From assembly GCA_965228895.1 (NCBI GenBank), contig OZ245842.1:2912001-2976000 (forward strand): a stretch of 64,000 nt of DNA, given 5' to 3'. The stretch is from Alphaproteobacteria bacterium (GTDB lineage: Bacteria > Pseudomonadota > Alphaproteobacteria > SP197). The position numbers were made by a program, and so were the translations under genes. The notes under the pieces are model-generated. The model was not told where the DNA came from. It did no database searches and worked only from the letters and a program-made list of their open reading frames with translations. Within the stretch, counting starts at the first letter, position 1; every line of letters begins with the position of its first letter. This document shows, one piece after another, positions 1-14,653 of the stretch.

Positions 1-526
1 TAACGGCAAGTGCGCGCGCGATACCGACGCGCTGACACTGGCCGCCACTGAGACCTGCCGGCTTGCGATCGATCAGGTCGGGTGTCAGGCCCGCATGGGT
101 GACAAGTTCGCGCACGCGGTCGTCAATCTCCTCCTTCGGGCACAGGCGATGGACCCGCAGCACCTCGGCAAGCGTCTGGCCCACCGTCAGTTTGGGATTC
201 ATAGAGGCGTGGGGATCCTGAAACACCATTTGCGCGCGACGGCGAAACGCGAGCAGGTCGTCGCCTTTCAGATCCAGAACCGATTGTCCATCGAAGATCA
301 CATCGCCTGACGTCGCGTCGGTCAGTCTCAGGATCGCGCGGCCCAGCGTGCTCTTGCCGCAGCCGCTTTCACCGACCAGCCCCAGGGTCTGTCCCTTCTC
401 CAGTGTCAGCGATACGCCGTTGACCGCGCGCACGACACGATGGGGCGCGCGGACCAGGATGTCCGCGAGATCGCGCTCGAGCGGAAAGTGGACGGTGAGG
501 TCGCGGACCTCCAGCAGCGCGGTCAT
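1..526 (-). CDS. Peptide/nickel ABC transporter ATP-binding subunit (OppF/DppF-like), 3' end runs off the window
   Basis: Read manually from ATG 526, which overlaps the upstream stop (ATGA): [15 protein letters not shown]...[29 protein letters not shown] (Walker A); LSGGQCQR signature near the window edge. Confidence 0.9.
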   Translation of the reverse strand, partial: MTALLEVRDLTVHFPLERDLADILVRAPHRVVRAVNGVSLTLEKGQTLGLVGESGCGKSTLGRAILRLTDATSGDVIFDGQSVLDLKGDDLLAFRRRAQMVFQDPHASMNPKLTVGQTLAEVLRVHRLCPKEEIDDRVRELVTHAGLTPDLIDRKPAGLSGGQCQRVGIARALAV

Positions 527-1506: not shown

Positions 1507-2375
1507 CAATCGCGCACCCCGAGCTTTTCGCCCAACCCGTCGGCCAGCAGGCTGAAGCCGAGCGCCAGGATGACAATCGCGATACCGGGGAATGTCGTTA
1601 CCCACCACGCGGTGGTCATGAATTGCTGGCCCTCGGCGATCATAACACCCCATTCCGCGGTCGGCGGCTGAACACCCAGACCGAGGTAACTGATCGCCGA
1701 ACCGGCCAGAATGACAATGACGACGTCCGACATCGAGAAGACGATGGATGGCACCAGCGCGTTGGGCAGGATGTGGCGGAACATGATGCGCCCGTGGCTG
1801 TATCCCAGGTTACGCGCGGCCATGACGAACTCGCTGTTCTTCAGGACCAGCACTTGTGATCGGACCAAACGGCAATAGGAGACCCAACCGACCAGGGTGA
1901 CCGCGATATAGAAGCTGTGCAGGCCGGGCTGCAGGATCGAGATGATCGCGAGCATCAAGACGTAGAACGGGAACGCCATGGTGACGTCCAGAAGACGCAT
2001 CATCAGGGTGTCGACCCAGCCGCCGAAATAGCCGGAGATCGCGCCCAGCGTGGTGCCCAGCAGGAACGGGAAGAGCACGGCAAGGATGCCCATCTGAAGA
2101 TCGATGCGCGTGCCGTGGATGACGCGCGACAAGACGTCACGGCCGTAGTTATCGGTACCCAGCCAGTGCTCCCAGCTTGGCGGCTGCAGGACAATGGAGA
2201 GGTTGTGGGCGTTCGGCGGGAATGGCGCGACCACATCGGCCAGCAGCGCAAGCAAGGCCCAGAACAAGACAAGGATGATGCCGAAGCGAAGTGTGAGCGG
2301 GAGTCTCGCGAAGGCGCGCCAGTCCGGCAGCCGGGGAAAGGCGCGCGTGCTCGTCCGGCGGTCGGCGACGCTCAC
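1506..2375 (-). CDS. Peptide ABC transporter permease (OppC/DppC-like)
   Basis: HWLGTDNYGRDVLSR, EFVMAARNLG (EAA loop), LGLGVQPPTAEWG; GTG start overlaps upstream stop. Confidence 0.92.
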   Translation of the reverse strand: MSVADRRTSTRAFPRLPDWRAFARLPLTLRFGIILVLFWALLALLADVVAPFPPNAHNLSIVLQPPSWEHWLGTDNYGRDVLSRVIHGTRIDLQMGILAVLFPFLLGTTLGAISGYFGGWVDTLMMRLLDVTMAFPFYVLMLAIISILQPGLHSFYIAVTLVGWVSYCRLVRSQVLVLKNSEFVMAARNLGYSHGRIMFRHILPNALVPSIVFSMSDVVIVILAGSAISYLGLGVQPPTAEWGVMIAEGQQFMTTAWWVTTFPGIAIVILALGFSLLADGLGEKLGVRD

Positions 2376-3310
2376 AGCTTGATCCTCGGGTCGAGCGACA
2401 CGGTCGCGATATCGACAAGAAAGTTGATCAGGACCGTCGCGCAGGCAAAGACCAGCGTGATCATCTGCACGATCATGTAGTCGCGCGCGAAAATACTCTG
2501 CACCAGTAGCGAGCCGAGACCTGGCACCGAGAACACCGACTCGACGACGACCGTGCCGCCGATCAACCAGCCGAGATTGACGCCCAAAAGATTGATCGTC
2601 GGGATCAGCGAGTTGCGGAACACGTGACGGACAAAGATCCATCGGGCCGGCAAGCCCTTGGCGCGCGCCGTCGAGATGTGATCGCTGTCGAGTTCGGCGA
2701 GCAGGCTGGCGCGCAGATTACGTGTCAGCACCGCCGAGAGCGCGAGCGCGATGGCGAAGGAGGGCAAGAAGAGCGAATGCAGGTGGCCGAAGAAGCCCTC
2801 GCCGAAGCCGGAGACCGGAAACAGGCCGAGCCAGACGCTGAACACGATCATCAGCATGATGCCGAGCCAGAACACCGGAAAGCCGAGGCCGGATGTAGAG
2901 AGCACGCGTATCAGGTGATCCGGTAACCTCCCCCGATAGAGCGTCGCGACAATGGCGAGCGGTATGGTGAAGAGCAGCGCCAGGGTGACGCCATAGCCCA
3001 GCAGGAACAGGGTCGCCGGCAGCCGGTCGAAGACGAGCTGTAGGACCGGCACCTTGTAGACCACCGAGACTCCCATCTCGCCCTGGGTCAGGTTCTCGAG
3101 GAAATAGACGTATTGCAGCCAGACCGGCTGATCGAGCCCGAACTCCGCGCGAATGCGCTCGATGGCCTCCGGCGTCGCCTTGCTGCCCAGGAGCGTGCGG
3201 ACGGGATCGCCGGGGATGCTGTGCACCATGACGAAGGTGACGATCGAAATCCCGAACAGGACGGGTATGAGTTGGATCGGCCGGCTTAAGATAAACTTGA
3301 AGCGGCCCAT
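2372..3310 (-). CDS. Peptide ABC transporter permease (OppB/DppB-like)
   Basis: IPGDPV, GLDQP..QY, TARAKGL, VESVFSVPGLG motifs. Confidence 0.93.
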   Translation of the reverse strand: MGRFKFILSRPIQLIPVLFGISIVTFVMVHSIPGDPVRTLLGSKATPEAIERIRAEFGLDQPVWLQYVYFLENLTQGEMGVSVVYKVPVLQLVFDRLPATLFLLGYGVTLALLFTIPLAIVATLYRGRLPDHLIRVLSTSGLGFPVFWLGIMLMIVFSVWLGLFPVSGFGEGFFGHLHSLFLPSFAIALALSAVLTRNLRASLLAELDSDHISTARAKGLPARWIFVRHVFRNSLIPTINLLGVNLGWLIGGTVVVESVFSVPGLGSLLVQSIFARDYMIVQMITLVFACATVLINFLVDIATVSLDPRIKL

Positions 3311-3347
3311 CAGCCCCTGCCCGTTGCCGTGGCGTCAGCCCGCATGA

Positions 3348-4232
3348 TCAACGGTTGCGGCCGAGGAAATCGAGCAGCACCGTAAAGAATGCATCGGGCT
3401 CCTCAAAGAACGGCGTGTGGGAGCTGTTGGGGAAGACGTTGAGTTCCGCATTGGGCAGCGCGTTCTTCATCTTCAGCGAACAGGCCGGCGTCAGCTCGTC
3501 GTGCTGGCCGACCATGATCAAGGCCGGACAGGTGATGCGGTGCATGTCGGCCAGCCGGTTCCAGTCCTTCAAGTTGCCGGTATAGAGGAACTCGTTGGGC
3601 CCTTGCATGGTGCCGTAGACGTTCATGTTCCAATCGTTGAGGGAACGCAGCAGCGGCGCCGGATACTCCTGCAGACGGCAGACATGACGGTAATTCAGCA
3701 CCGTGATCGCCGCCTGGTATTCCGGGTGATCGAGCGTGCCCTCGGCCTCGTGGCGCTGCATCATCGCGACCGTCTCCGGCCCCAGCGCTTCGCGGTGACG
3801 CTCGAGCTCGCCGATCAGATGCGGCATGTCGCCGCAGGTGTTTTCCAGAATGACCGTCTTCAGATTGTCGGGATAGGTGACGCCGTATTCGATGGAGAGC
3901 CAGCCGCCCCACGACTGCCCGACCAGATGCACCTTGCCGAGGTCGAGCGCCTTGCGGACCGTCTCGACCTCCTCGACATAACGCGTGATGGTCCACAGCG
4001 ATTTGTCGTCGGGCTTGTCGGACTTGCCGCAACCCAACTGGTCGAAGGCGACGACACGGTAACCGTGATCGGAGAGAAACGAGTGGCTGTCGCGCACATA
4101 GTCGCACGGCAGGCCGGGCCCGCCGTTCAGGCACAGCAGCACATCATCGCCGCTGCCGAAGCTATAGGTAACGACCTTGTAGCCATCGACCTCGACGTCA
4201 ACGACAGCGTCGGCTTCCTTCTCGTACCACAT
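3348..4232 (-). CDS. pip: Proline iminopeptidase-family alpha/beta hydrolase (Pip-like)
   Basis: NGGPG oxyanion motif, DQLGCGKS, GQSWGG nucleophile, HDE acid, SSH His; heads the peptide ABC operon. Confidence 0.8.
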   Translation of the reverse strand: MWYEKEADAVVDVEVDGYKVVTYSFGSGDDVLLCLNGGPGLPCDYVRDSHSFLSDHGYRVVAFDQLGCGKSDKPDDKSLWTITRYVEEVETVRKALDLGKVHLVGQSWGGWLSIEYGVTYPDNLKTVILENTCGDMPHLIGELERHREALGPETVAMMQRHEAEGTLDHPEYQAAITVLNYRHVCRLQEYPAPLLRSLNDWNMNVYGTMQGPNEFLYTGNLKDWNRLADMHRITCPALIMVGQHDELTPACSLKMKNALPNAELNVFPNSSHTPFFEEPDAFFTVLLDFLGRNR

Positions 4233-4320
4233 GCGCACCCTCCCCGGCTTGGCCGTCGCACGACGGCGGCGAAAGCTTGGGGCGGAGATCGTGTGAGGTC
4301 AAGGGAACGGCGCAGTGACT

Positions 4321-6459
4321 TCAAGACTGCGACGCGCACCACTCGCGCCACATGTGGCGTAACGCCGCCTCGAAGTCCCTGGTGTAACGATCGATATCCC
4401 ACGCGGGCCGGGCCAACAGGCGCTCTCGCAAACCGCGCTTCAGCGATAGCAATGCAGCACGATCTTGTGCCTTGGCGGCAGCAATCTCGATGTAAGCGTC
4501 ATCGTCATCTGCGATCCAGTCGTCCAACCCGGCGGCATTCATGAAACTGGCACCCATGCGCTGAGAGAAGTTGCCCCCTCTTTTCGTCACAACGGGTACA
4601 CCCATCCACATGGCCTGCAACGTTGTTACGCCGCCTGTTACGGGAACGGGATCGAGGCCAATGTCGATGCTGGCGTATTCCGACATCATGGCCAGAAGCG
4701 GCCGCTCGCCTCGAAGAATGAGCTGTTCGAAACCAATGCCTTCATTCTCGAAGAGGTCTTTGTAGCGGTTGACGACTCCCGGATCGCCCAAACCCTTGCA
4801 GGCGAGGAGCAGGCGCGACTCAGCAACCCGCTTTAGAACGCGCGACCACAAGCGAACGGTCGACATTGTGAGACTTTCAATATCGTTGAAAGATCCGAAA
4901 GTAAGTGGACGATCTCGATAGCGATCTGTGAAGTCTGGAAGCTGGTAGTCGGCATCTGGTGCATAGCAAAAAACCGTATTGGGAAGTCGCACAACTTTCT
5001 CGGAGTAAAGCTCGTCATGCTCGGGCGGAGCGACGACGTTGTCGGCGATAATCCACCCCATATTGGGCACACCGGTCGTTCCAGGGTAGCCGAGATATGT
5101 CGTCTGAACTGGCGCAAGATTCTGGAAGATAAGAACCATGGCGTTGTGATTCGTATGCCCGGCCAGATCGACCATGATGTCTATGCGATCTTCCTCGACC
5201 CGACGTCTGAACTCGCCACGAAAGATTGCAGGGATTGGTCGCCAAGCATCGACTTGCGAGATGGCACGCCGTGTCTCCGCGTCATAGGCGGCACCCGTCT
5301 TGTAGAATGTCGTATGGAAAAGTCGGGGATCGAGCCGCCTCAAGATTGGCTGCATAAGCTCATTGATGCGGCTTTCGCGGCGCAAATCTGACGTCATGAA
5401 ACCGACACGGATTTGTCGTTCGGGGTCGGGGTTGTTGGGAAACGGTTCGCGGCGTTGGATCCATGTGTTCAGGAACTCCAACAGTTCGACATGCAGATCT
5501 GAAATCTCAGCAGGATTTAGGTGTTCGCTGTACAACGACATCGTCGCAGCATCCGAAGTCACGGCGGTAAAACCCTTCTTGGCTCTGCTCTCGTAGATCT
5601 TGAATGCTCTCGCCGTATCACCGGTCTTGGCAGCGATTGAGCCATTTAGCTCAGTCTCGTGCAGGCTGAGATCGGATGCTGACTCCTCGATCTCATTCAT
5701 TGCCTCGGTCAGTGCGCCGCTATCAACCATCATGCGAACCAGAAGATAACGGGCGCTTCGCCTATCGTGCTTGAGTTCGGCCTCGCGTCGCAACGCAGCA
5801 AACGCACTGTCATAAAGTCCGCTGCGGAACGCAATTCTTGCCGCACGTTCATGAGCGTAGTCATCGTCAGATAGAAGCACTTCATCAAACACACATCGCG
5901 CTTCGCGGACCAGACCAACCTGCGCCAACGCGTCACCGAGTTCGATCAGAGTATGCGCGACAACTTTCTGGGCGTTGTCATCGACCACCTGACGCGCGAA
6001 CTCCAAGGATCGACGGAAGCATTCGATAGCACAACCCGGTCTGCCAATATGAAGTCGGGTGCGGCCGATGCTTCGATGTACATTGGCGAGGTCCTTGGCG
6101 TCTTCGCCCGCTGTGGCGATGGTAAGATAGTACTGGGCGGCAGCTTGTTCGATACGTCCGACGTCCTCCAAACAGGACACGTAGGACAACCTCGCCCTCC
6201 AGCGCGTATCGTCCAAGAGCAATGCTTGTTCGTAACACAACATCGCGCTCTCTCGAGCACGAAGGCACACATAAGTGCCCGCTAACTCCAACCAATCGTC
6301 CACGCTCTGACGATTCGATCGAAGGCGATCCACGTAATCATCGCGAAACCGCTCCAGCTCTGCCCTGGAAGCGCGGGCACGAACGAGAACCATGTCTCGA
6401 GACGAGTCAGTTCTATCCGCCGCCGTATCTGGCGTCGGCGGCTTTATCGCGTCACTCAT
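4321..6459 (-). CDS. TPR-repeat O-GlcNAc transferase-like protein (SPINDLY/GT41 family)
   Basis: N-terminal helical TPR-like repeats; IRVGFMTSD, DIMVDLAGHT, APVQTTYLGYPGTTG, TFGSFN, DIGLDP..GGVTTLQAMWMGVPVV; visibly lower GC than its neighbours; start uncertain (6459 or 6573). Confidence 0.88.
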   Translation of the reverse strand: MSDAIKPPTPDTAADRTDSSRDMVLVRARASRAELERFRDDYVDRLRSNRQSVDDWLELAGTYVCLRARESAMLCYEQALLLDDTRWRARLSYVSCLEDVGRIEQAAAQYYLTIATAGEDAKDLANVHRSIGRTRLHIGRPGCAIECFRRSLEFARQVVDDNAQKVVAHTLIELGDALAQVGLVREARCVFDEVLLSDDDYAHERAARIAFRSGLYDSAFAALRREAELKHDRRSARYLLVRMMVDSGALTEAMNEIEESASDLSLHETELNGSIAAKTGDTARAFKIYESRAKKGFTAVTSDAATMSLYSEHLNPAEISDLHVELLEFLNTWIQRREPFPNNPDPERQIRVGFMTSDLRRESRINELMQPILRRLDPRLFHTTFYKTGAAYDAETRRAISQVDAWRPIPAIFRGEFRRRVEEDRIDIMVDLAGHTNHNAMVLIFQNLAPVQTTYLGYPGTTGVPNMGWIIADNVVAPPEHDELYSEKVVRLPNTVFCYAPDADYQLPDFTDRYRDRPLTFGSFNDIESLTMSTVRLWSRVLKRVAESRLLLACKGLGDPGVVNRYKDLFENEGIGFEQLILRGERPLLAMMSEYASIDIGLDPVPVTGGVTTLQAMWMGVPVVTKRGGNFSQRMGASFMNAAGLDDWIADDDDAYIEIAAAKAQDRAALLSLKRGLRERLLARPAWDIDRYTRDFEAALRHMWREWCASQS

Positions 6460-6582
6460 GGTCGAAAATCCAAGTCTTGCGACGACCGGCGGAATCTCAA
6501 ATCGGGAGAGTTCTCCAAACCGGCAAGCCGCCGCGGTATGGACTACAGGTTGCACCTGCGGCGTGTCAAGCACGCCATGGTA

Positions 6583-7563
6583 TTAGGTCTCCGTGGACGT
6601 GACCGTCACCGGCGCCGGCAAGACCTGGAAGTAAGGATGCACCGGCGCGTCCTTTGGCTTGACGAAAAAACGCCGGGCGAGTTCGCGGTAGCCGTTCTGC
6701 ACGAAGCCGCCGTTTTCGGCCAGCACCTCGTCGCGTTGTTCGCGATAGCGCGCCGGCAGTTCGTACCACGGGCGGCCGGGCTCGCGGTGATGGACGGCGT
6801 GCAGGTTGTTGTTGAGGAACAACAGTGCCAGCGGCCACTCCGCTTCGTTGATCACCGTGCGGTGGCCGACCTGTTCAGCCGGGCGGTGTTCGGCGTAGGA
6901 GCGCAGCAAGGTCAGCGCCATACCGGGATAGGCAAAGAACAGCAGATACGCCCAGACCGGAATGCCGCAAACCGCGATCACCCAGGTCAACACGAGAGCG
7001 ACGCCGACAAAATGCAGTAGCCAGGCAACCATCTGTTCTCTGTCGCCCTGCATGAAGCTGATGACGGCCGCACGATAGAGCCAGAAGGTCGTGACGAACG
7101 GCCCGACGATCAGGCGGCCGGCCAAGGTGCTGAGCACCCAGCGCAGGCCACGCCCCACGGCACCCATTGATTCCCAGGCGTCCGGTGTTGCGTAACAGCT
7201 TTCCGGATCCTTGATCGGACACGTCAATTGCTGGTCGCGATGGTGAGTCAGATGGCTCTCGCGGTAGACCCGGTAGGGATACCAGAGAGACAGCGACGGA
7301 AAGACGATGAGTTCGTTGACGAGGTCATTGCGCGTCGGGTGGCCGTGGACGGCCTCATGCTGCAACGACCCGTGCCAAGCGCAGAGCCAGCCGCCAAGCA
7401 GGAAAACCAGCCAGCCCGGCAGGACATCATAACTCCAGGTAACCGCGAACCAGCCGAGGTAGATGACCACGACCAGCGCCCATGTCGGCACCTCATGACG
7501 GCGCCAAAAGTTCGGCACATCAAGGCTGATGGGTCTGTTATGTCGCGCGCTCGTTCCTGACAT
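6583..7563 (-). CDS. Membrane fatty acid desaturase-family protein
   Basis: His boxes QHEAVHGH, HLTHH, EH, NLHAVHH with hydrophobic segments. Confidence 0.88.
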   Translation of the reverse strand: MSGTSARHNRPISLDVPNFWRRHEVPTWALVVVIYLGWFAVTWSYDVLPGWLVFLLGGWLCAWHGSLQHEAVHGHPTRNDLVNELIVFPSLSLWYPYRVYRESHLTHHRDQQLTCPIKDPESCYATPDAWESMGAVGRGLRWVLSTLAGRLIVGPFVTTFWLYRAAVISFMQGDREQMVAWLLHFVGVALVLTWVIAVCGIPVWAYLLFFAYPGMALTLLRSYAEHRPAEQVGHRTVINEAEWPLALLFLNNNLHAVHHREPGRPWYELPARYREQRDEVLAENGGFVQNGYRELARRFFVKPKDAPVHPYFQVLPAPVTVTSTET

Positions 7564-7689
7564 GACCCTGTCATGTTTCCCCGTGATCACGGTTTTGTCA
7601 TGATGGGAATGCGCAGATTCCGAGACGATTAGTCACCAAGTGCGACATTTTGTGATAAAACACAGCATCTGTTGGAAAAAGAGGATAGT

Positions 7690-8556
7690 GTGACGACGTT
7701 ACGCTACGACCGACGAGAGACCGTCAGGATCTTTCGGGATCGCCTGCAGGCGGTATTGGAGCAAGGCCAGTTCAGCCAGTCGGCGTTCGCCCAGCGCATA
7801 GGCATCGACCGTTCGACGCTGTCGCAATTGCTGTCGCCCCATAACGACCGCCTGCCGCGCGCCGATACGGTGGCGGCGATGGCGTTGGCCGGTCAGGTCA
7901 GTGTCGACTGGCTGTTGGGTTTGAGCCAGGACGAGACCGGCGACGAGGCTATTGTCGGCCAGCCCCTGGAGATCGCACGCGAAGCCTGGGACCCCGCCAA
8001 CGAACGGCTGACCGTGTGGCACGCGGAAGCCGCCGGCTACAAGATCCGCTATGTGCCGAGTACCCTGCCCGACCTCCTGAAGACCGACGCGGTGACGGAG
8101 TTCGAATACGAACCGAGCCAGGGCATGACCGTGAACGAGGCCGCTACCACGGCGCAATCAAGGCTCGACTATTCGCGCCGGCCCGAGACCGATATCGAAG
8201 CCTGCAGTTCGTTCCAGTCGGTTGAGGGTTTTGCCCGCGGCGAAGGCATCTGGCGCGACCTGCCGGCCCAGGCGCGGCGCGAACAACTGACCCAGTTGGC
8301 CGATTTGTCGGAGGAGCTCTACCCGACCTTCCGCTGGTTCCTGTTCGACGCGCTCGAACGCTACGTGCCGCCGATCACGGTGTTTGGCCCATTGCGCGCC
8401 ATTCTCTATGCCGGCGAGGTCTATTTCATCTTCAACGCGACCGAACACATCCGGCTCCTCACCGAACATTTCGATTCGCTGATCCGTTCGGCCGTGGTAC
8501 AGCCGAACGAGCTGCCGCAATACGTTCGCGACCTCATGGGAGAGATCGATGGCTGA
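7690..8556 (+). CDS. XRE-family HTH transcriptional regulator with C-terminal putative ligand-binding domain
   Basis: SQSAFAQRIGIDRSTLSQLL helix-turn-helix, VSVDWLLG; GAGGA SD before GTG 7690; divergent from the desaturase. Confidence 0.88.
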   Translation: MTTLRYDRRETVRIFRDRLQAVLEQGQFSQSAFAQRIGIDRSTLSQLLSPHNDRLPRADTVAAMALAGQVSVDWLLGLSQDETGDEAIVGQPLEIAREAWDPANERLTVWHAEAAGYKIRYVPSTLPDLLKTDAVTEFEYEPSQGMTVNEAATTAQSRLDYSRRPETDIEACSSFQSVEGFARGEGIWRDLPAQARREQLTQLADLSEELYPTFRWFLFDALERYVPPITVFGPLRAILYAGEVYFIFNATEHIRLLTEHFDSLIRSAVVQPNELPQYVRDLMGEIDG

Positions 8557-8971
8557 GCCCACAAAACCCATGCGCGGCGGTTGCCTGTGCGGCGCCGTGC
8601 GTTATGAGATCGACGGCCCGTTGCGCGATGTCGTCACCTGCCATTGCGGCCAGTGCCTGAAGACCCACGGCAACTACGCCGCCTATAGCGCCACCGACAA
8701 AACGAACCTGCGGCTGATCGAGGACCGCGGCCTCGCCTGGTACGATTCCTCCGACAAGGCCAAGCGCGGCTTTTGCCGGGAGTGCGGCGCGAGCCTGTTC
8801 TGGGAACCCAGCTTCGCCGACTATGTCGCGGTCTCCGCCGGTTCGATGGAGGGACCGACCGGGTTGAAAGTCACGCGGCATATCTTCACCCGGGACAAGC
8901 CGGACTGGTACGAGATTACCGATGGCAAGGACGAGGTCCTGGAAAGCATGTACACGTCGGACACCGGATGA
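8549..8971 (+). CDS. GFA (glutathione-dependent formaldehyde-activating / CENP-V) family protein
   Basis: GGCLCGAVRY, CHCGQC, RGFCRECG zinc motifs. Confidence 0.9.
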   Translation: MAEPTKPMRGGCLCGAVRYEIDGPLRDVVTCHCGQCLKTHGNYAAYSATDKTNLRLIEDRGLAWYDSSDKAKRGFCRECGASLFWEPSFADYVAVSAGSMEGPTGLKVTRHIFTRDKPDWYEITDGKDEVLESMYTSDTG

Positions 8972-9771
8972 TCGCCGGCCTGCCCATGTACGCGCTGCCA
9001 GAGGTTCAGGCGGCGACCGATGCATGGTGGCAGGGCTTGGCGCGGGCGTTTCGTGCCGCCGGTCTCGACGACGTGCCGGACGGTCTGGATCAAGACGGCG
9101 ACCGGCTGCAACACTGGGCTTCGCCCGATCTGCTGTTGTCGCAGAGCTGCGGCTATCCGCTCAGGCACGACTTTGCCGATCACCTGCAGCCCGTCGCAAC
9201 GCCATGTTACCGGGCCGAAGGCTGCGACGGCCCGACCTATCTGAGCGTGATCATCGTCGCCCAGGACAATCCGGCTGGCGCGATCACCGACCTGCGCGGC
9301 CAACGCGCGGCGATCAACGGCTGGGACTCCCAATCGGGCATGAGCGCGCTGCGCGCCGTGGTCGCGCCCCACCACCGCGACGGGCGTTTCTTTGGCGAGG
9401 TCATGGTCTCCGGCGGCCATGGGCTCAGCCTCGCGGCGGTGCGCGAGGGCAAGGCCGATGTGGCGGCGATCGACTGCGTGACCTTCGCGCTTGTCCTGCG
9501 TCACGCACCCGCCATGGTCGACGGCGTCAGGGTTCTCATGCGGTCACCGGCGGTACCGGCCCTGCCCTACGTCACCCATATCGGTCACCCCGCCGAGACG
9601 GTCGCGAAGCTGCAAAACGGGCTGGCCGCCGCCATCGCCAACCCGGACCTCGCGGGCGCCCGCGACACGCTTTTGATCGAGGATTTCGCCGTTCTGACGG
9701 TCGACGATTACGCGCCAATCGACGCGATGCAGGACGAGGCGATCGCGCGAGGTTACCCACAAATCGCCTAA
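8968..9771 (+). CDS. PhnD/SsuA-like periplasmic-binding-fold protein lacking an obvious signal peptide
   Basis: ATGA-coupled start MIAGLPMY; SQSCGYP, DLRGQRAAIN..DSQSG, GGH..SL.AV..G.ADVAAIDCVT. Confidence 0.8.
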   Translation: MIAGLPMYALPEVQAATDAWWQGLARAFRAAGLDDVPDGLDQDGDRLQHWASPDLLLSQSCGYPLRHDFADHLQPVATPCYRAEGCDGPTYLSVIIVAQDNPAGAITDLRGQRAAINGWDSQSGMSALRAVVAPHHRDGRFFGEVMVSGGHGLSLAAVREGKADVAAIDCVTFALVLRHAPAMVDGVRVLMRSPAVPALPYVTHIGHPAETVAKLQNGLAAAIANPDLAGARDTLLIEDFAVLTVDDYAPIDAMQDEAIARGYPQIA

Positions 9772-9910
9772 CACTACACTATCTTGTGGATGAACATTGT
9801 TCACGGCCGCAACATCTGTCTTTCTTCTGTATAAGTCAGATTATGCTTGAATCTCATTGAGTTAGACGTGACCCTTCACGTGGGAGTTCAAAGGGGAACG
9901 TTTGTACACC

Positions 9911-10567
9911 ATGAGTGCCAAGCACCAGGCGCCACGACTGGCGGGCGCGTATTCTGTCATCTACGCCGACCCGCCGTGGAACTTCGCGACATACTCAAGA
10001 AAAGGTCGGGGCAGGAGCGCCCACGCCCATTACGACTGCATGTCGCAAGCCGAACTCGAGGCACTGCCCGTTGCGGACTGGGCGGCGGATGACGCCGCTC
10101 TTTTGATGTGGATTACCGACCCGCACCTGCCCCGCGCCTTCGAGCTGATCGAGGCCTGGGGTTTCACCTACAAGACGGTCGGATTCTACTGGGCCAAGCT
10201 GAACCGCTCGGCATCGGCCGATCAGTTCAGCGAAGACGATTTCTTTACCGGTATGGGTTACTGGACACGGGCCAATGCCGAACAATGCCTGCTGGCGACA
10301 CGCGGCTCGCCAAAGCGACAAGGGCGTGACGTCCGGCGCCTGCTGGTCTCGCCGCGGCGCGAACACAGCCGCAAGCCGGACGAGGCCTATGGCCGCATCG
10401 AGCGGCTGATGGACGGGCCTTATCTCGAGATGTTTGCCCGCACGACCCGGCCCGGCTGGGACAGCTGGGGCAACCAGGCCGGCCTGTTCGACGCCGGCGA
10501 GGTCGCCACCCGCCGCTGGGCCTCCAACCTCAAGAAACACCCGCAGCCCGCGGCGTCGCTGCGCTAA
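9911..10567 (+). CDS. MT-A70 family (METTL3/Ime4-like) adenine methyltransferase
   Basis: IYADPPW catalytic motif, WGFTYKT, GMGYWTRAN.E.CL, REHSRKP, LEMFAR, GWDSWGNQ. Confidence 0.92.
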   Translation: MSAKHQAPRLAGAYSVIYADPPWNFATYSRKGRGRSAHAHYDCMSQAELEALPVADWAADDAALLMWITDPHLPRAFELIEAWGFTYKTVGFYWAKLNRSASADQFSEDDFFTGMGYWTRANAEQCLLATRGSPKRQGRDVRRLLVSPRREHSRKPDEAYGRIERLMDGPYLEMFARTTRPGWDSWGNQAGLFDAGEVATRRWASNLKKHPQPAASLR

Positions 10568-10573
10568 GCGCCG

Positions 10574-10873
10574 TCAGCCCGCCGACGTCACGACATCGTT
10601 GACGTTGACGAGGGCGGCCAGGCACCGGGCGATATAGAGGCCCGTTTCCGGCTCCAGGTCGTCGACCTGGACGTCGATCTGTAGTTCGGCGCGCGGGCCA
10701 TCGACGACGGCGCTGTGCCAGCGGGTCGGCACCAAATCGCGCTTGGCGAACTGCTCGAGCACGCGCGGCATGACGCACGGCTCGGGAGCGGCATAGACGG
10801 CAAAATGGAAACGTTGGGATTGGCGGGCGCTCAGGGCGGCGCCGGCGGCGAAATCAGATGAAACGGTCGACAT
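10574..10873 (-). CDS. Small stand-alone ACT-like domain protein (IlvM/AHAS small-subunit-like fold)
   Basis: F.VYAAPEPCVMPRVLEQFAKRDL...LQIDVQV...V..V pattern typical of an ACT fold; GGAG SD before ATG 10873. Confidence 0.65.
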   Translation of the reverse strand: MSTVSSDFAAGAALSARQSQRFHFAVYAAPEPCVMPRVLEQFAKRDLVPTRWHSAVVDGPRAELQIDVQVDDLEPETGLYIARCLAALVNVNDVVTSAG

Positions 10874-10915
10874 GACGATCGGTCTCCAAAAAGGCAAAAG
10901 GACGAATCACGGAAC

Positions 10916-10938: not shown

Positions 10939-11008
10939 CCGGTAATTCGCCTGATGGCCTTCAAGACCGACATCGCGTCGATATTCCTTGGTCCGTTCAA
11001 GACGCCAC

Positions 11009-11037
11009 TTTATACGCCGAAATCGAAATTCCATCAA
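11009..11037 (-). promoter_or_regulatory. Putative sigma70 promoter
   Basis: Minus strand TTGATG-N17-TATAAA, about 135 nt upstream of ATG 10873. Confidence 0.55.
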
Positions 11038-11059
11038 TTCACCCAAAAGGCTGAACGTG

Positions 11060-11635
11060 ATGGCCGACACCGGCTTTAACCAAATCGATACCGATCGCCT
11101 GGTGATCCGCCGGTTCCGCCCGGACGATGCCTCAGCCTTCAGCGCCTATCGGTCAATCCCCGAGGTCGCACGTTATCAAAGCTGGGAGGCCCCCTACTCG
11201 CTCGCCGAGGCGCAGGTCTTCATGGACGAGATGGCGGCATGCCATCCGGACACGGAAGGCGAATGGTTCCAGTTCGCGGTCGCGCTGTGTGATCAACCCG
11301 GTTTGATCGGCGACGTCGCCGTACTGGTACCCGATGGCGATCCCGGTTCCGTCGAGATCGGTTACTCGCTGGATCCGGCGTTCGGCGGACGCGGTTATGC
11401 CGGCGAGGCGGTCGCCGCCATCGTGACCTATTACTTTGACGCGCGCGGCAAGCGCGAGGTGATGGCGTGGACCGACACGCGCAACCTGCCCTCGATCGCC
11501 CTGGCCGAACGGCTTGGCTTTCGGCGCGACCCCGCCTCGCGCCAACACACCATGTTCAAGGGCGCGTGGTGCGACGAGGACCGCTACGTCATGACATCAG
11601 AGGATTGGGCGGCGCGTTCGAACGACTGCATATAG
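11060..11635 (+). CDS. GNAT N-acetyltransferase (RimJ/RimL family)
   Basis: TDRLVIRRF, EIGYSL, GRGYAGEA, N.PSIALAERLGF. Confidence 0.88.
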   Translation: MADTGFNQIDTDRLVIRRFRPDDASAFSAYRSIPEVARYQSWEAPYSLAEAQVFMDEMAACHPDTEGEWFQFAVALCDQPGLIGDVAVLVPDGDPGSVEIGYSLDPAFGGRGYAGEAVAAIVTYYFDARGKREVMAWTDTRNLPSIALAERLGFRRDPASRQHTMFKGAWCDEDRYVMTSEDWAARSNDCI

Positions 11636-12123: not shown

Positions 12124-12147
12124 AAGCCCGCCATCGGCGGCGGGGTT
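12124..12147. terminator. Possible intrinsic terminator hairpin after the GcvT-family gene
   Basis: CCCGCC-ATCGGC-GGCGGG stem directly after the stop; weak U-tract. Confidence 0.4.
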
Positions 12148-14600
12148 CAGCAGCGTATGCGCGCGTTCTTGGGATCGTACATCGGTGTCAGAGAGGCACG
12201 CGCGTCGTAGACGCGGTCGGCCTGTTCGATGCGATAACTACCGGCATCGACAAAGTCCGCGGTGACACCGTCCTCACAGCGCAGATAGCCCATCGCGGCG
12301 CACCCGCCCAGTGTATGCGCATAGCCCGACGACAGCGTATAGCCGGCGCGCTCGCCGTTGCGCAGGATCGGCTCGTTGTGGGTCAGCATGGGTTCGGGGT
12401 CCTCGAGCAGGAACTGTACCAGACGTCGGCGCGGCACCCCGGCGTCGCGCTGTTCGAGCAGCGCCTCGCGGCCGATGAAACCGCCGGGCTTGTCCCAGGC
12501 GCAGGTAAAGGCAAGCCCGGCGTCGATCAGCGAATCCAGCGGCCCGATGTCGTGGGCCCATTCGCGATACGCCTTTTCGATGCGCAAGGTGTTGAGCGTG
12601 TGATAGCCGCAATGTTTAAGCCCATGCCCGGTACCCGCCTCGATCAGGCGGTCGTAGACCGGCAGCGCCATTTCGGTGGGCACATAGAGTTCCCAGCCGA
12701 GTTCGCCGGTATAGGAGATGCGGATCGCCATGGCGTTCTGGTAGCCGATTTCGACGGGCTGCATGGTGGCGAAGGGAAATGCTTCGTTCGAATAATCCGC
12801 GCTCGAAATCTCGGAAAGAAGGGCGCGCGCGTTGGGGCCCTGCACGTTGAGCATGGCATAGGCGCCGGTGACGTCGGTCAGCACGCAGAACGCGTCTTCG
12901 CCGATGTTCTCGTGGATCCAGGCCTTCACGTGTGTCGCGGTGAACGCCGCCGTCACCACCATGAACGTATCGTCGGCAAGGCGTGTGATGGTGAGGTCGG
13001 CCTCGACGCCGCCGCGCGCGTTGAGGAATTGGGTGTAGGCCACCTCGCCGGCGGGCATCGCCATGTCGGCGGTAGCAATCCGGTTCAGGACCTTTTCCGC
13101 GTCCCGACCCTGGACCAGAATCTTGGCGAACGACGACTGTTCGAACACACCAACCGCCTCGCGCACGGCGCGGTGCTCCTCCGCGTTGTTGTCGAACCAG
13201 TTCTGGCGGCCGAAGTCATACGCATAGGCCGGTTCCTGGCCCGGCCGTGCGAACCAGTTCGGCCGCTCCCAGCCGGCGCCGGCGCCGAAACAGGCGCCGG
13301 CCGCGGCCATGCGGTCGTGCAGGATGGAGCGTTTGACGTCGCGGCCGGTCTCCCACTGACGGTTCGGCCAGTGCATCTGGTAGGCGATGCCCAGCGATTC
13401 GACGATGCGATCGACAATAAAGGACTTGTTGTTCTCGGACGGCAGGATGCGGCGCACGTCGACATCCCAGATGTCATAGGGCTGCACACCGTCGTTGATC
13501 CAGTGCGACATCACGTAACCCGCGCCGCCGCCTGACAGGATGCCGAGCGAGTTGAAGCCGCAGGCGACGTAGAGATTGTCGATATAGGGCGCGCGGCCCA
13601 TCAGATAGTTGTGGTCCGGGGTGAACGATTCGGGGCCGCAGAAGAACTGACGGATACCGGTTTCGAACAGGATCGGCAGACGCTGCATGCCGCGCTCGAT
13701 ATGCGGCTCCATGCGCTCCCAATCGGGCTGGATCTCGTCGAAACAGAAACTCTCAGGAATGCCGTCGACACCCCAGGGCGCGGCTGTCGGCTCGAACAGC
13801 CCGAGCATGAGTTTCCCCGCCTCCTCGCGCGCATAGATGCCGCGGCCGGGATCGCGCAGGATCGGCAGCATGTTGTGCAGACGCTCGATCGGCTCGGAGA
13901 TCAGGTAGTAGTGCTCGGCCGCCTGCAGCGGAATGTCGATGCCGGCCATCAGGCCGACCTCGCGGCCCCACATGCCCGGACACAACACCACGACCTCGGC
14001 GCGCACGTCGCCCTTATCGGTATTGACGCCGACCGCGCGGCCGTTCTCCTTGATCAGGCCCGTGACCTTGGTGTCCTCGAAGATGCGCACGCCGCGCTGA
14101 CGCGCGCCCTTGGCCAGCGCCTGCGCAACGTCGGCGGGATTGACCCGACCGTCCTCCGGGAACCAGAAACCGCACACGAGGTCGTCGACTTGGGCGAGCG
14201 GAAACTTCTCCTTGATTTCCGCCGGCGAAATCTCGTGGTTCTCGACGTCAAACGTGCGCGCCATCGCACAGCCGCGGCGCATTTCCTCGGCCTTGTCCTC
14301 GGTCATGGCAAGCTGGATCGAGCCGCATTTGATGAAGCCCGTCGCCTGCTCGGTTTCGGCCTCAAGCTCGCTGTAGAGTTTGAGCGAGTACTGCGCCAGC
14401 CGCGTCTGTGCCTCGGTATCGCGCAGGGTGGTGACCAGGCCGGCGGCATGCCAGGTGGTGCCGCTGCTCACCTGCTTGCGCTCAAGCAGGACGACGTCCT
14501 CCCAACCGAGCTTCGCCAGGTGATAGGCCACCGAACACCCGATGACACCGCCGCCGACAACGACTGCGCGAGCGTTGGAGGGGATCGCGTCTGTGTTCAT
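12147..14600 (-). CDS. GcvT-family FAD-dependent N-demethylating dehydrogenase (sarcosine/dimethylglycine dehydrogenase or 4-methylaminobutanoate oxidase-like)
   Basis: VVGGGVIG FAD motif, GTTWHAAG, GPESFTPD, WERPNWF, SYTGELGWEL, LRIEKAY GcvT domain. Confidence 0.9.
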   Translation of the reverse strand: MNTDAIPSNARAVVVGGGVIGCSVAYHLAKLGWEDVVLLERKQVSSGTTWHAAGLVTTLRDTEAQTRLAQYSLKLYSELEAETEQATGFIKCGSIQLAMTEDKAEEMRRGCAMARTFDVENHEISPAEIKEKFPLAQVDDLVCGFWFPEDGRVNPADVAQALAKGARQRGVRIFEDTKVTGLIKENGRAVGVNTDKGDVRAEVVVLCPGMWGREVGLMAGIDIPLQAAEHYYLISEPIERLHNMLPILRDPGRGIYAREEAGKLMLGLFEPTAAPWGVDGIPESFCFDEIQPDWERMEPHIERGMQRLPILFETGIRQFFCGPESFTPDHNYLMGRAPYIDNLYVACGFNSLGILSGGGAGYVMSHWINDGVQPYDIWDVDVRRILPSENNKSFIVDRIVESLGIAYQMHWPNRQWETGRDVKRSILHDRMAAAGACFGAGAGWERPNWFARPGQEPAYAYDFGRQNWFDNNAEEHRAVREAVGVFEQSSFAKILVQGRDAEKVLNRIATADMAMPAGEVAYTQFLNARGGVEADLTITRLADDTFMVVTAAFTATHVKAWIHENIGEDAFCVLTDVTGAYAMLNVQGPNARALLSEISSADYSNEAFPFATMQPVEIGYQNAMAIRISYTGELGWELYVPTEMALPVYDRLIEAGTGHGLKHCGYHTLNTLRIEKAYREWAHDIGPLDSLIDAGLAFTCAWDKPGGFIGREALLEQRDAGVPRRRLVQFLLEDPEPMLTHNEPILRNGERAGYTLSSGYAHTLGGCAAMGYLRCEDGVTADFVDAGSYRIEQADRVYDARASLTPMYDPKNARIRC

Positions 14601-14653
14601 GAAAGCCTCTCTCTCCGCGCGCCGCCTTGGCGAAGCGTTAACAGGACCACGTC

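Follow-up and report, generated by a model that had tools for sequence, protein, structure and literature searches.

Most enzymes of the FA_desaturase family act on acyl chains, and the family also includes membrane oxygenases with soluble, non-lipid substrates, namely RtxC, MocD and the L-arginine hydroxylase GntB. Binding-protein folds have likewise been recruited as cytoplasmic enzymes, as in MqnA, MqnD, THI5 and DszB, the last of which also uses a cysteine. Within the PhnD-type fold (PF12974; TIGR03431), PhnD, PtxB and HtxB are the binding proteins of ABC transporters for phosphonate, phosphite and hypophosphite, and Glu177 and Asp205 of PhnD hold the amino group of 2-aminoethylphosphonate (PMC5908839), while AioX, ArrX and ArxX (PDB 6esk, 6esv, 6eu7, 6x6b; PMC5908839) are periplasmic proteins that sense arsenite or arsenate. 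Regulators of the TrmB family (PDB 2f5t, 3qph, 5bpd) join a winged-helix DNA-binding domain to an effector domain of PLD-like fold. Here we describe an alphaproteobacterial locus with relatives of these proteins, found in a 64,000-nucleotide stretch of DNA that is called the window below.

Gene Organization and Conservation of the Locus

Four open reading frames were borne out at the positions originally predicted, with a desaturase gene divergent from three overlapping genes. The FA_desaturase-family membrane di-iron oxygenase lies on the minus strand at 6583-7563 (326 aa from the ATG at 7563; PF00487, E 3.5e-34), a start that is more likely than the alternative GTG, which would extend the gene to 6583-7590. 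On the plus strand follow the XRE-family regulator (7672-8556, 294 aa; HTH_3, E 2.1e-6), a GFA-family zinc/cysteine protein (8549-8971, 140 aa; PF04828, E 1.7e-20) and a PhnD-like protein of the AioX/ArrX type (8968-9771, 267 aa; PF12974, Phosphonate-bd, E 1.4e-21), the first two genes overlapping by 8 bp and the last two by 4 bp.

The desaturase transcription unit probably continues downstream over positions 2-4238 of the minus strand, although the membership of these genes in the system is uncertain. Pfam identified there an alpha/beta hydrolase (3348-4238) and a Dpp/Opp-type set of two permeases (2372-3310 and 1506-2642) and two ATPases (523-1653 and 2-613). The absence of a permease or ATPase partner, as first proposed, thus holds within 6583-9771, but not for the minus-strand genes at 2-3310. 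In the nearest related locus (L001) the desaturase is directly followed by the same hydrolase and permeases, with 97-100% identity to those of the window, while over the wider sample about 13 of 91 loci had Dpp-type ABC genes within 5 kb, a share near chance expectation. The window also holds a DMGDH-type gene at 12147-14783 according to Pfam.

The conservation of the arrangement was evaluated in 115 independent loci, for which the PhnD-like or the XRE gene served as the seed, and all frequencies are conditional on this seeding. The desaturase was present in 88 loci, the XRE regulator in 79 and the PhnD-like protein in 103, with all three core genes in 63; XRE and PhnD-like genes co-occurred in 67. 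Besides, among the 78 XRE-seeded loci, 75 had the regulator and the desaturase in back-to-back orientation, and the proposal of a conserved unit is supported. Gene overlaps were also recurrent (XRE/PhnD-like by 4 bp in 10/26 loci, GFA/PhnD-like in 8/26, XRE/GFA in 11/20), and both order and overlaps reappeared in Alphaproteobacteria, in Gammaproteobacteria and in assemblies bearing the labels Acidobacteriota, Verrucomicrobiota and Actinomycetota, with protein identities of only 40-60% between loci.

A bare same-strand pair of desaturase and PhnD-like genes lacking XRE was found in Rhizobiales, Novosphingobium, Erwinia and Methylosinus. The PhnD-like family is frequent among ordinary heterotrophs of soil and sea as well as on rhizobial plasmids. 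In about 27 of the 91 PhnD-seeded loci it stood apart from any desaturase, for example beside a UGSC selenoprotein and a GMC oxidoreductase or beside EPSP synthase, and such contexts were scattered through a quick tree of the family. Because the PhnD-like protein is also found without the desaturase, its role cannot be specific to this oxygenase. Literature searches returned no published description of the gene set and no study of such an arrangement for a member of any of the four families.

A Cytoplasmic Relative of AioX and ArrX

Profile comparison of the PhnD-like protein against PDB gave AioX (1.2e-28) and ArrX (1.5e-23) ahead of Escherichia coli PhnD (1.1e-7), and the AlphaFold2 model (pLDDT 95.8) matched AioX best in Foldseek (TM 0.80). 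By these sequence and model comparisons, AioX and ArrX, both sensors of arsenic oxyanions, are its nearest relatives of solved structure, whereas PhnD is more distant; the score against the PhnD equivalog TIGR03431 was 62.6 bits, far under the cut-off of 261.1. Six of the seven AioX pocket residues are kept, AioX C106, Y131, S161, S163, H192 and D210 aligning by HMM with C61, Y91, S121, S123, H151 and D169, while the equivalent of AioX Tyr88 could not be aligned and Y8 is a doubtful seventh pocket residue. Among 210 distinct sequences, C61, S121, H151 and D169 were invariant, S123 was found in 207 and Y91 in 199; C61 corresponds to the subfamily-specific cysteine that bonds arsenite in AioX. 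The family differs from AioX in the additional invariant residues Q59 and N117 and in V171, which replaces Tyr212. With PhnD, PtxB and HtxB it shares the Pfam family, the fold and the Ser-x-Ser-Gly and His anion-binding motifs, but the positions of PhnD Glu177 and Asp205 are taken by V171 and P200, and phnCE genes and a signal peptide are absent.

The open frame extends over 8773-9771, but the start that is conserved, MIAGLPMY, lies at 8968, and the in-frame extension upstream lies within the GFA gene and is not hydrophobic. The best 120 homologues listed measured 246-272 aa, and 30 N-termini (every fourth of these 120) started 1-4 residues from the first strand, LPMY. These results agree with the absence of a signal peptide noted initially, and the two cysteine motifs reported, SQSCGYP and AIDCVT, are both present in the translation. 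The protein is thus predicted to be cytoplasmic and to work without a Phn-type transporter, and hence to represent a recruited binding-protein fold serving as ligand binder, sensor or enzyme. Like AioX and ArrX, it has no matching Phn-type transporter genes; unlike them, it would reside in the cytoplasm, it is partnered by the genes for an XRE regulator and a di-iron membrane oxygenase, and no partner histidine kinase or response regulator and no arsenic oxidoreductase genes are found near it. With MqnA, MqnD, THI5 and DszB it shares the general idea of a type II binding-protein fold working inside the cell without export, but none of these was matched by sequence profile against PDB or among the top 50 fold matches, and its pocket is that of a ligand binder (AioX) in which a catalytic apparatus is not recognisable. 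The suggestion that it is an enzyme or intracellular sensor therefore stands as regards the recruited cytoplasmic fold, while its nearest kin are oxyanion binders and not the enzymes that had been named.

Desaturase, Regulator and GFA Protein

The desaturase has four predicted hydrophobic segments, and a 50-sequence alignment revealed the invariant His boxes QHExxHGH, HLxHH, RSxAEH and NNNLHxxHH together with a conserved cytosolic loop, LTxPxxDPESxY. No NCBIfam equivalog was assigned, the best scores being those of CrtR (39 bits, cut-off 475) and GntB (26 bits, cut-off 380); the GntB model (NF041365) covers nearly the whole protein with a score so far under its cut-off that orthology to GntB is ruled out. 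GntB, RtxC and MocD nonetheless have in common with the desaturase the His-box di-iron membrane family, and its gene surroundings are catabolic rather than lipid-related. All five FA_desaturase paralogues in this genome lie amid amino-acid or amine catabolic genes, such as those for urocanase, arginase, LLM monooxygenase, ALDH and PLP decarboxylase. We know of no partner of GntB, RtxC or MocD resembling the PhnD-fold protein.

In the XRE regulator, a Cro/C1-type HTH (residues ~14-85) is followed by a domain with a PLD-superfamily fold (residues ~96-290) that lacks the HKD motif and is presumed, from its modelled structure (pLDDT 81.9), to bind an effector. The VIA-align Z scores of this domain were 10.7 for the SauUSI nuclease domain, 10.3 for both TrmBL2 and NucT, 10.1 for the FAM83B DUF1669 domain and 8.9 for the sugar-binding domain of TrmB. 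The pairing of a DNA-binding domain with a PLD-like effector domain (Z 8.9-10.3) recalls the TrmB family, which differs in its winged helix and has no detectable sequence similarity to this regulator. The original prediction had likened the C-terminus (AEAAGYKIRYVPSTLPDLLKT) to a DUF5753/WhiJ-type domain; the string is present, but hmmscan detected no DUF5753 in the whole protein (E<=0.01) or in residues 101-294 (E<=5), a region with no Pfam match at E<=5, and the predicted fold is a different one. Among 1.84 billion representatives, the domain forms a small family of 403 clusters, which almost without exception have this architecture.

The GFA protein carries the motifs CLC, CHCGQC and CRECG and scored only 19 bits against the Gfa equivalog (cut-off 234.55). 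Its gene is an accessory one, present in 38 of the 115 loci, sometimes in two copies, and it lay just upstream of the PhnD-like gene in every tblastn row showing GFA, with up to two copies listed per locus.

Divergent Control Region

The spacer between desaturase and XRE (7564-7671) was compared with 41 homologous spacers. The palindromes noted earlier in the intergenic region (7561-7592), CATGAC-N3-GTCATG (CATGACCCTGTCATG, 7561-7575) and CCGTGATCACGG (7581-7592), are present in the DNA and overlap the start-codon region of the desaturase. They were, however, common only to the window and L001, and each type is common in the window at about chance frequency (33 perfect 12-mer palindromes vs 22.5 in shuffles; 34 inverted repeats of the 6-N3-6 type vs 22.9); as proposed operators they are not conserved.

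A candidate for the XRE operator is a conserved inverted repeat on the plus strand at 7633-7655, located 17 bp before the start codon of XRE. It reads TCACCAA-N9-TTTGTGA and has one mismatch to the consensus TCACCAA-N9-TTGGTGA. With up to 3 mismatches, the repeat was found in 12 of 36 non-redundant spacers (mean 0.9 and maximum 4 in 200 shuffles), and 7633-7655 is its sole match in the 5.5-Mb genome. In addition, a conserved plus-strand box, GGGAATGCGCA (7605-7615), may be a promoter element or second site; AATGCGCA occurred in 6 of the 36 non-redundant spacers vs 0.1 in shuffles, and several loci keep the distance of ~17 bp between the box and the inverted repeat that follows it. As originally predicted, the unit appears to be self-regulated by the XRE protein.

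Genomic Neighbourhood

MttB-family genes (PF06253) adjoined the module in 21 of the 115 loci, all 21 members being confirmed by Pfam, and most of these loci had the order MttB (forward), desaturase (reverse), XRE, GFA and PhnD-like (forward). Part of this association could be due to chance, since these genomes hold many MttB paralogues: with 18 copies in the 5.5-Mb genome, about 4% of random 11-kb stretches hold one. In aerobic marine Alphaproteobacteria, MttB-family proteins take part in the demethylation of glycine betaine (PMC12478193). DAO homologues were found in 13 of the 115 loci, amidases in 9 and aromatic amino-acid lyases in 7, and in 7 loci listed a DAO-type FAD oxidoreductase followed the desaturase in the same direction. 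On annotated plasmids, the desaturase/PhnD-like pair lay beside NtaA/DmoA or LLM monooxygenases, aldehyde dehydrogenases or the sulfite dehydrogenase SoxC, and adjoining ABC importers consisted of an ATPase of 358-370 aa, two permeases of ~210-225 aa and a binding protein of ~300 aa. Pfam scanning of 20 representatives from the 32 most recurrent neighbour clusters returned MttB, DAO, amidase, ABC importers, HAL, GST and the like. Altogether, the recurrent neighbours point to methylated-amine catabolism, not to lipid modification or signalling; of the small-molecule or lipid modification/signalling system first envisaged, the lipid and signalling parts found no support.

Discussion

We tentatively favour, with a probability of roughly 0.4, the view that the module serves the catabolism of a small polar compound, a methylated amine or organo-oxyanion, by an oxygenase under local regulation. 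Against this view, a lipid substrate is more probable a priori, as acyl chains are what most FA_desaturase enzymes act on, and the accessory genes differ widely between loci, each occurring in at most 21 of 115. To our knowledge, moreover, arsenite, and not organic compounds, is the ligand of AioX-type cysteine pockets.

It is rather unlikely, in comparison, that a true acyl-lipid or acyl-CoA desaturase or hydroxylase remodels a membrane lipid, with XRE sensing the lipid or its head-group and the PhnD-like protein binding a phosphate- or phosphonate-type head-group or precursor. The strong full-length FA_desaturase match, the hydrophobic segments and the canonical His boxes would fit such a module, as would the fold of the XRE C-terminal domain, given that phosphodiesters and the head-groups of phospholipids are typical targets of PLD-superfamily domains. 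The alpha/beta hydrolase after the desaturase in the window and L001 and the amidase-signature enzyme in 9/115 loci are also compatible with it, and a lipid-binding PhnD-fold protein does exist, the sterol binder 7t1m, at Foldseek rank 18. The cavity of that protein is hydrophobic, however, whereas the invariant residues of the PhnD-like pocket are polar. Additionally, none of the 20 Pfam-scanned neighbour representatives belongs to a fatty-acid or lipid-synthesis family, the five FA_desaturase paralogues all sit in catabolic surroundings, and GFA would have no obvious role. We consider it still more doubtful that the PhnD-like protein is the ligand-binding partner of XRE in a cytoplasmic two-part sensor, as AioX is for the kinase AioS, with the desaturase merely a regulated target. 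AioX and ArrX are indeed sensor-only binding proteins that feed no transporters, the XRE and PhnD-like genes are translationally coupled, with a 4-bp overlap in 10 of 26 loci, and co-occur in over half of the loci, and a hybrid histidine kinase gene immediately precedes the PhnD-like gene in one locus of Planctomycetota (L009). That adjacency is nevertheless absent from the two other Planctomycetota loci, and each partner occurs without the other, as 15 of 91 rows of the PhnD-like tree have the desaturase without XRE, including two-gene desaturase-PhnD operons, and 6 untruncated loci have the XRE-desaturase pair without a PhnD-like gene. XRE, besides, has a putative effector domain of its own.

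The conserved arsenite pocket, with its invariant cysteine, and the transferrin lobes among the fold matches could also suggest that Cys, His, Asp and Tyr bind arsenite, antimonite, an organoarsenical or a metal, the protein being a chaperone or sensor tied to an oxygenase that transforms this species or needs this metal; a CobW-type GTPase was identified by Pfam near the PhnD-like gene in one locus (L022), with a same-sized ORF at that position in another (L021). Such a role is very improbable in view of the family being common in ordinary heterotrophs and of the Pfam-scanned neighbours, which include no ars, aio, arr or arx gene and no ArsR, Acr3 or ArsB family. Finally, adjacency by chance or shared ancestry only would agree with the variable accessory content and with the XRE homologue placed elsewhere in three of five genomes with a lone PhnD-like gene, but it is hardly credible, since the conservation counts already contradict it: order and overlaps are shared by distant lineages, the unit is kept despite low protein identities, and XRE and desaturase are nearly always adjacent.

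For the catabolic oxygenase that we prefer, the most likely compound class is a methylated or quaternary amine, or an amine with a sulfonate, phosphonate, phosphate or sulfate ester, or carboxylate group. An XRE dimer would bind 7633-7655 and control the operons on both sides, its own (XRE-GFA-PhnD-like) and the divergent one led by the desaturase, and would sense substrate or product through the PLD-fold domain at its C-terminus. The desaturase would hydroxylate, desaturate or oxidatively demethylate the substrate, in the way that GntB, RtxC and MocD act on soluble compounds, and GFA, where present, may trap formaldehyde or another electrophile released by the oxidation. The AioX-like protein would use its conserved Ser/Ser/His/Asp/Tyr/Cys pocket to hold the substrate by its anionic head, or else a small oxyanion product of pyramidal or tetrahedral shape, and would either present the ligand to the membrane enzyme or remove it. 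Overall, the desaturase, the XRE regulator and the predicted cytoplasmic PhnD-like protein constitute a widespread, undescribed gene set, which may equip these bacteria for the oxidation of such small polar compounds.

Organization and conservation of the module

Both the ORF list and the Pfam assignments bore out the four-gene divergon of the original prediction, and the window sequence contains the peptide strings that it cites as well as both of its palindromes. The module comprises a gene of the FA_desaturase family on the minus strand (6583-7563; PF00487, E 3.5e-34, profile positions 4-242 of 253), for which ATG at 7563 is the preferred start and GTG at 7590 a possible one, and three genes on the plus strand encoding an XRE regulator (7672-8556; HTH_3 at residues 26-81), a GFA-family protein (8549-8971; PF04828, E 1.7e-20) and a PhnD-fold protein (8968-9771; PF12974, E 1.4e-21, residues 54-248). 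The XRE and GFA genes overlap by 8 bp and the GFA and PhnD-like genes by 4 bp. None of the four proteins reaches the cut-off of an NCBIfam equivalog.

Relatives were sought in one genome per species from 185,579 species. Scanning with the PhnD-like protein, as a single sequence and then as an alignment, yielded at least 575 relatives and 91 loci, and scanning with an alignment of the XRE regulator yielded at least 587 relatives and 78 further loci, the relatives being in each case those confirmed among the 600 pattern matches listed. Many of these 169 loci overlapped on the same contigs, and they were reduced to 115 independent groups, in which a gene was scored as present by tblastn at ≥50% coverage and ≥30% identity. 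The PhnD-like gene was present in 103 of the 115 groups, the desaturase in 88, the XRE regulator in 79 and GFA in 38, while desaturase, XRE and PhnD-like genes were found together in 63; two of the module genes served as seeds and some contigs are incomplete, so these counts are conditional frequencies. Among the 78 XRE-seeded loci, the desaturase was adjacent and divergent in 75, and the PhnD-like gene lay downstream in 61, elsewhere in the locus in 4 and was absent in 6, with another 6 loci incomplete. The co-occurrence expected by the original prediction was thus found in other genomes and, since the PhnD-like homologues examined also lack a signal peptide (see below), that prediction stands on both points.

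The commonest architecture places the desaturase divergent from XRE, zero to two GFA genes and the PhnD-like gene. There is also an arrangement without XRE, in which the desaturase diverges from two GFA genes and the PhnD-like gene, and a bare pair of desaturase and PhnD-like genes on the same strand, which occurs in Rhizobiales, in Novosphingobium and on annotated plasmids of Erwinia, Methylosinus and Agrobacterium. About 27 of the 91 PhnD-seeded loci had no desaturase within 5 kb of the PhnD-like gene. Tight junctions recur: 10 of 26 loci had a 4-bp overlap between XRE and PhnD-like genes, GFA and PhnD-like genes overlapped in 8 of 26, and XRE and GFA genes in 11 of 20. An apparent XRE-PhnD fusion ORF at one locus (L013) falls where the tblastn alignment switches reading frame and was taken as an assembly or frameshift effect.

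A cytoplasmic protein with an AioX-like pocket

More than 2,200 homologues of the PhnD-like protein were found in a metagenome-scale protein set, the best 120 of which measure 246-272 aa. The window protein begins at its first beta-strand (MIAGLPMY), as do the 30 N-termini examined among the 120 homologues listed (M..ASLPMYDLPE), which leaves no space for a signal peptide, and neither the alignment nor a reading of the sequence revealed an export signal or lipobox. The absence of a signal peptide, already part of the original prediction, therefore extends to the homologues examined, and the protein is predicted from its sequence to be cytoplasmic. It shares the Phosphonate-bd domain with PhnD; it differs in its score against the PhnD equivalog TIGR03431 (62.6 bits against a cut-off of 261.1; 60.3 against 112.05 for the subfamily model TIGR01098), in the missing export signal and in the missing Phn transporter. 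No PhnC/PhnE-type ATPase or permease adjoins it in the window or was found among the Pfam-scanned neighbours of related loci, and the ABC genes that do lie near PhnD-like genes are of Dpp/Opp or other types with binding proteins of their own. Among the matches listed, every homologue with a source name carries the annotation of a binding protein for a phosphonate or phosphate transporter, a label that is almost certainly wrong where the fold of an exported protein is retained inside the cell.

The closest characterised relatives are sensors of arsenic oxyanions. A 43-member profile matched AioX (E 1.2e-28) and ArrX (1.5e-23) far better than PtxB (only 1.2e-9) or E. coli PhnD (1.1e-7), and AioX (TM 0.80) and ArrX were also the best fold matches of the AF2 model (pLDDT 95.8). 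The AioX pocket is described as Tyr88, Cys106, Tyr131, Ser161, Ser163, His192 and Asp210, with Cys106 bonding arsenite and PhnD lacking that residue (PMC5908839). Six of these seven residues align by HMM to C61, Y91, S121, S123, H151 and D169 of the PhnD-like protein, and the equivalent of Tyr88 falls outside the aligned region. C61, S121, H151 and D169, together with Q59, S93, G124 and P200, are invariant in all 210 distinct sequences; 207 of them retain S123 and 199 retain Y91. As judged from these alignments, the family keeps an AioX-like pocket for a small oxyanion, with its cysteine, in an intracellular protein that has no kinase partner.

AioX, ArrX and ArxX are periplasmic and are encoded with a histidine kinase and a response regulator (the XSR module) beside arsenic oxidoreductase genes, whereas the PhnD-like protein has neither a signal peptide nor such partners in the module. 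A kinase adjoins the PhnD-like gene in a single locus (L009) of the 39 PhnD-seeded loci scanned with Pfam (14 + 25), and no aio, arr or arx genes were found in these loci or in the scan of recurrent neighbour clusters.

The PhnD-like protein is a single copy in its own genome. A search for longer forms returned no fusions to desaturase, XRE or GFA. Three metagenome proteins (P0271, P0272 and P0273; 491-809 aa) carry an N-terminal PhnD-like domain with 37-40% identity and the motifs kept, followed by long, low-complexity, unrelated and eukaryote-looking C-terminal parts with no Pfam family among the matches listed.

The desaturase-family enzyme and the GFA protein

Nine histidines are invariant in 50 desaturase sequences (H69, H73, H104, H107, H108, H226, H255, H258 and H259). 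The enzyme falls far below the equivalog cut-offs of the characterised subfamilies CrtR (39 against 475 bits), CrtW (15.8 against 350) and GntB (26 against 380), its match to AlkB (8f6t) has an E of 0.0023 over only about 120 residues, and a search of the ESM Atlas gave generic fatty acid desaturase clusters only. A complex prediction of desaturase and PhnD-like protein, with both given as alignments and without controls, gave no verdict (score 0.00) and counts neither for nor against a complex. All five FA_desaturase paralogues of the genome lie among genes of amine or amino-acid catabolism. A second desaturase of the same subfamily (L182:4962-5840; 38% identity over 297 aa) is encoded about 1.04 Mb from the window in the same genome, with neither XRE nor PhnD-like neighbour, between urocanase and a luciferase-like monooxygenase and with an aldehyde dehydrogenase and an ornithine cyclodeaminase-family gene nearby. 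Four Thalassobaculum-type loci (L004, L006, L007 and L008) encode a second small HTH_3 protein (157 aa) on the far side of the desaturase; they also carry another FA_desaturase gene, distinct from the first, at 1-4 kb downstream of the PhnD-like gene.

The GFA protein carries the motifs CLC, CHCGQC and CRECG, whose cysteines are putative zinc ligands, and does not qualify as a Gfa orthologue under TIGR02820 (19 bits against a cut-off of 234.55).

The XRE regulator and a candidate operator

The original prediction likened the C-terminus of the regulator to a DUF5753/WhiJ-type domain, which was not supported: residues 101-294 had no Pfam match at E≤5. A Foldseek search with the AF2 model (pLDDT 81.9) alone was weak (E 4e-3). 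VIA-align gave clear matches over residues 96-290, with Z of 9-10.7, to the SauUSI nuclease domain, NucT, Nuc, PLD, Zucchini and the DUF1669 of FAM83B, and also matched the PLD-like effector domains of TrmB and TrmBL2, so that the predicted structure of the C-terminal domain is that of the PLD superfamily. The HxK(x)4D (HKD) motif is absent and the invariant residues of the domain, which include W19, G25, K27, R29, P32, P36, D37, E48, E79 and Q85 (alignment numbering), comprise no histidine, for which reason the domain is read as a pseudo-enzyme and, most simply, as an effector-binding domain. From 1.84 billion representatives, a profile of this domain retrieved no more than 403 clusters, almost all of which share this architecture and a length of about 280-300 aa. 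The joining of an XRE helix-turn-helix to a pseudo-PLD domain represents a new regulator architecture.

The original prediction had pointed to two palindromes in the intergenic region. They are present, but such elements are at chance level in the window (33 perfect 12-mer palindromes against 22.5 in shuffles, and 34 6-N3-6 repeats against 22.9), and these two are shared only with the nearest related locus (L001). A comparison of 36 non-redundant desaturase-XRE spacers showed other words to be enriched. ATCAACA occurred in 10 and ATCACCA in 9 of them, against fewer than one in shuffles, and AATGCGCA occurred in 6 against 0.1. The enriched words resolve into the inverted repeat TCACCAA-N9-TTGGTGA, found with up to three mismatches in 12 of the 36 spacers against 0.9 in shuffles. 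The window copy (7633-7655), with one mismatch, lies 17 bp upstream of the XRE start and is the sole match in the 5.5-Mb genome; we propose it as a candidate operator. Of practical value, the module offers a putative pair of ligand-responsive repressor and operator with a testable binding site.

Repeated TGTCAT motifs in the spacer were also considered as Pho boxes. Pho-box repeats are spaced 11 bp apart; the motifs here are spaced by 28 bp and kept only in L001, and this reading was rejected. A scan of 6400-10000 gave no sigma-70-like promoter and a single terminator-like site, inside the XRE gene, fewer than in shuffles.

Genomic neighbourhood

Neighbouring ORFs of all loci were clustered and the cluster representatives scanned with Pfam. 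The most frequent neighbour is the MttB family (PF06253), present in 21 of the 115 loci, with all 21 members confirmed by Pfam and mostly in the order MTTB> DESAT< XRE> GFA> PhnD>. The genome of the window encodes 18 MttB paralogues, and about 4% of its random 11-kb stretches would contain one; the occurrence of MttB beside the module in 18% of loci, at a fixed position, is above this background. A DAO-type FAD oxidoreductase was found in 13 loci, on the same strand and directly downstream of the desaturase in seven loci listed, an amidase in 9 and an aromatic amino-acid lyase in 7, and GST and ABC importer components also recur. MttB-family proteins of aerobic marine Alphaproteobacteria are involved in demethylating glycine betaine (PMC12478193).

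A DMGDH-type gene (12147-14783) and an MttB gene (46931-48433) lie inside the window, and four of the 18 MttB paralogues fall within about 94 kb around it, one of them inside and two others 8-11 kb ahead of its first position, which gives the region the look of an island for methylated-amine catabolism. Where the desaturase-PhnD pair is carried on annotated plasmids, it adjoins NtaA/DmoA or LLM flavin monooxygenases and aldehyde dehydrogenases, with ABC importers of two small permeases and their own binding protein alongside. On the plasmid of Methylosinus trichosporium OB3b (L184), soxC (sulfite dehydrogenase) and a cytochrome c gene directly precede the pair on the same strand, which hints at a possible relevance of sulfite in certain lineages.

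Downstream of the desaturase, a 750-aa TPR and GT41 (O-GlcNAc-transferase-like) gene (4321-6573, minus) starts 10 bp past the desaturase stop, with a GC content of 0.55-0.58 against 0.60-0.66 around it. In L001 this gene is missing and an alpha/beta hydrolase directly follows the desaturase; the TPR/GT41 gene looks like an insertion into a desaturase-led operon. Beyond it lies a Dpp/Opp-type set (2-4238, minus) of a hydrolase, two permeases and two ATPases, with no family-5 binding-protein gene between hydrolase and permeases. Dpp-type ABC genes were considered as part of the module and set aside as uncertain: about 13 of 91 loci have them within 5 kb, near a rough chance estimate of 10% for genomes so rich in transporters. 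On the other side, the PhnD-like gene is followed by an MT-A70 family methyltransferase (9902-10567), with homologues downstream of the PhnD-like gene in L001, L018, L020 and L030; by a 107-aa protein without family (10574-10897, minus), with a counterpart there only in L001; and by a GNAT acetyltransferase (10988-11635), with homologues there in L001, L018 and L020.

Away from the module, PhnD-like genes follow EPSP synthase or aldehyde dehydrogenases, or have a UGSC-family gene, probably for a selenoprotein, on one side and a GMC oxidoreductase on the other, and an XRE homologue was encoded elsewhere in three of five genomes with a lone PhnD-like gene. Because these contexts vary and are scattered among one another in a quick tree of the PhnD-like family, its ligand is probably shared by several oxidative pathways and not a substrate peculiar to one of them. 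The UGSC-family gene lies directly upstream of the PhnD-like gene and contains an in-frame TGA (L017:3349-4998, also L021, L022, L027 and L038); it is flanked by a luciferase-like monooxygenase and followed by the GMC oxidoreductase. With TGA read as U, the L017 gene encodes one 550-aa protein (PF24696, E 2.5e-44), and under table 11 it breaks into two ORFs, of 91 and 444 aa. The product is probably a selenoprotein, which annotation would show as two pieces.

Discussion

Every part of the module belongs to a known superfamily, and there are known examples both of a binding-protein fold recruited for use inside the cell and of a catabolic divergon under local regulation. The combination of a cytoplasmic AioX-type protein, a membrane oxygenase of the FA_desaturase family and an XRE regulator with a pseudo-PLD effector domain matches nothing found in our literature search, which returned no description of the gene set and covered few subscription journals.

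The neighbour families give the best clue to function, and for this reason we tentatively favour, at a probability of about 40%, the reading that the module centres on an oxygenase and serves the catabolism of a polar methylated amine or organo-oxyanion, by biochemical steps that we infer. The AioX-like protein would be a cytoplasmic binder of the anionic head-group of the substrate or of a small oxyanion product, GFA would trap formaldehyde or another electrophile, and XRE would be the ligand-responsive local regulator. FA_desaturase-family enzymes act mostly on lipids, and because of this a lipid substrate stays a serious rival, if a less likely one, as no lipid-synthesis family was found among the 20 scanned representatives of recurrent neighbour clusters.

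The original prediction left the PhnD-like protein as either an enzyme or a sensor. That it is purely a co-sensor of the regulator appears doubtful, considering that some loci have desaturase and PhnD-like genes without XRE and others XRE and desaturase without a PhnD-like gene. A role in arsenic or metal biology, for which the AioX-like pocket is the sole basis, is most improbable given that no ars, aio or arr genes were found among the neighbours scanned.

A bolder form of the catabolic reading, itself improbable, is that the AioX-type protein is the obligate soluble subunit of a new two-part oxygenase and presents a zwitterionic substrate to the membrane enzyme. The binding-protein-fold partner would grip an osmolyte-like zwitterion by its anionic head, the integral-membrane di-iron enzyme would hydroxylate or oxidatively demethylate it, and GFA would trap the released formaldehyde. 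Candidate substrates would be phosphocholine, choline-O-sulfate, an N-methylated aminosulfonate or aminophosphonate, or an organoarsenical such as arsenobetaine. If true, this would represent an unrecognised aerobic route of methylated-amine or organo-oxyanion turnover in at least several hundred bacterial species.

To our knowledge, the sensing of arsenic in the periplasm is the sole setting in which the AioX-type cysteine pocket has been described, and the present family extends it outside arsenic biology as a far larger cytoplasmic sister family that is in all likelihood uniformly mis-annotated and is directly testable. Its pairing with a membrane enzyme of the FA_desaturase family in catabolic surroundings is unusual. 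Methylated amines and organo-oxyanions matter in the nitrogen, sulfur and phosphorus cycling of marine and soil environments, and the module, should the catabolic reading be true, would be a new enzyme system for their turnover.
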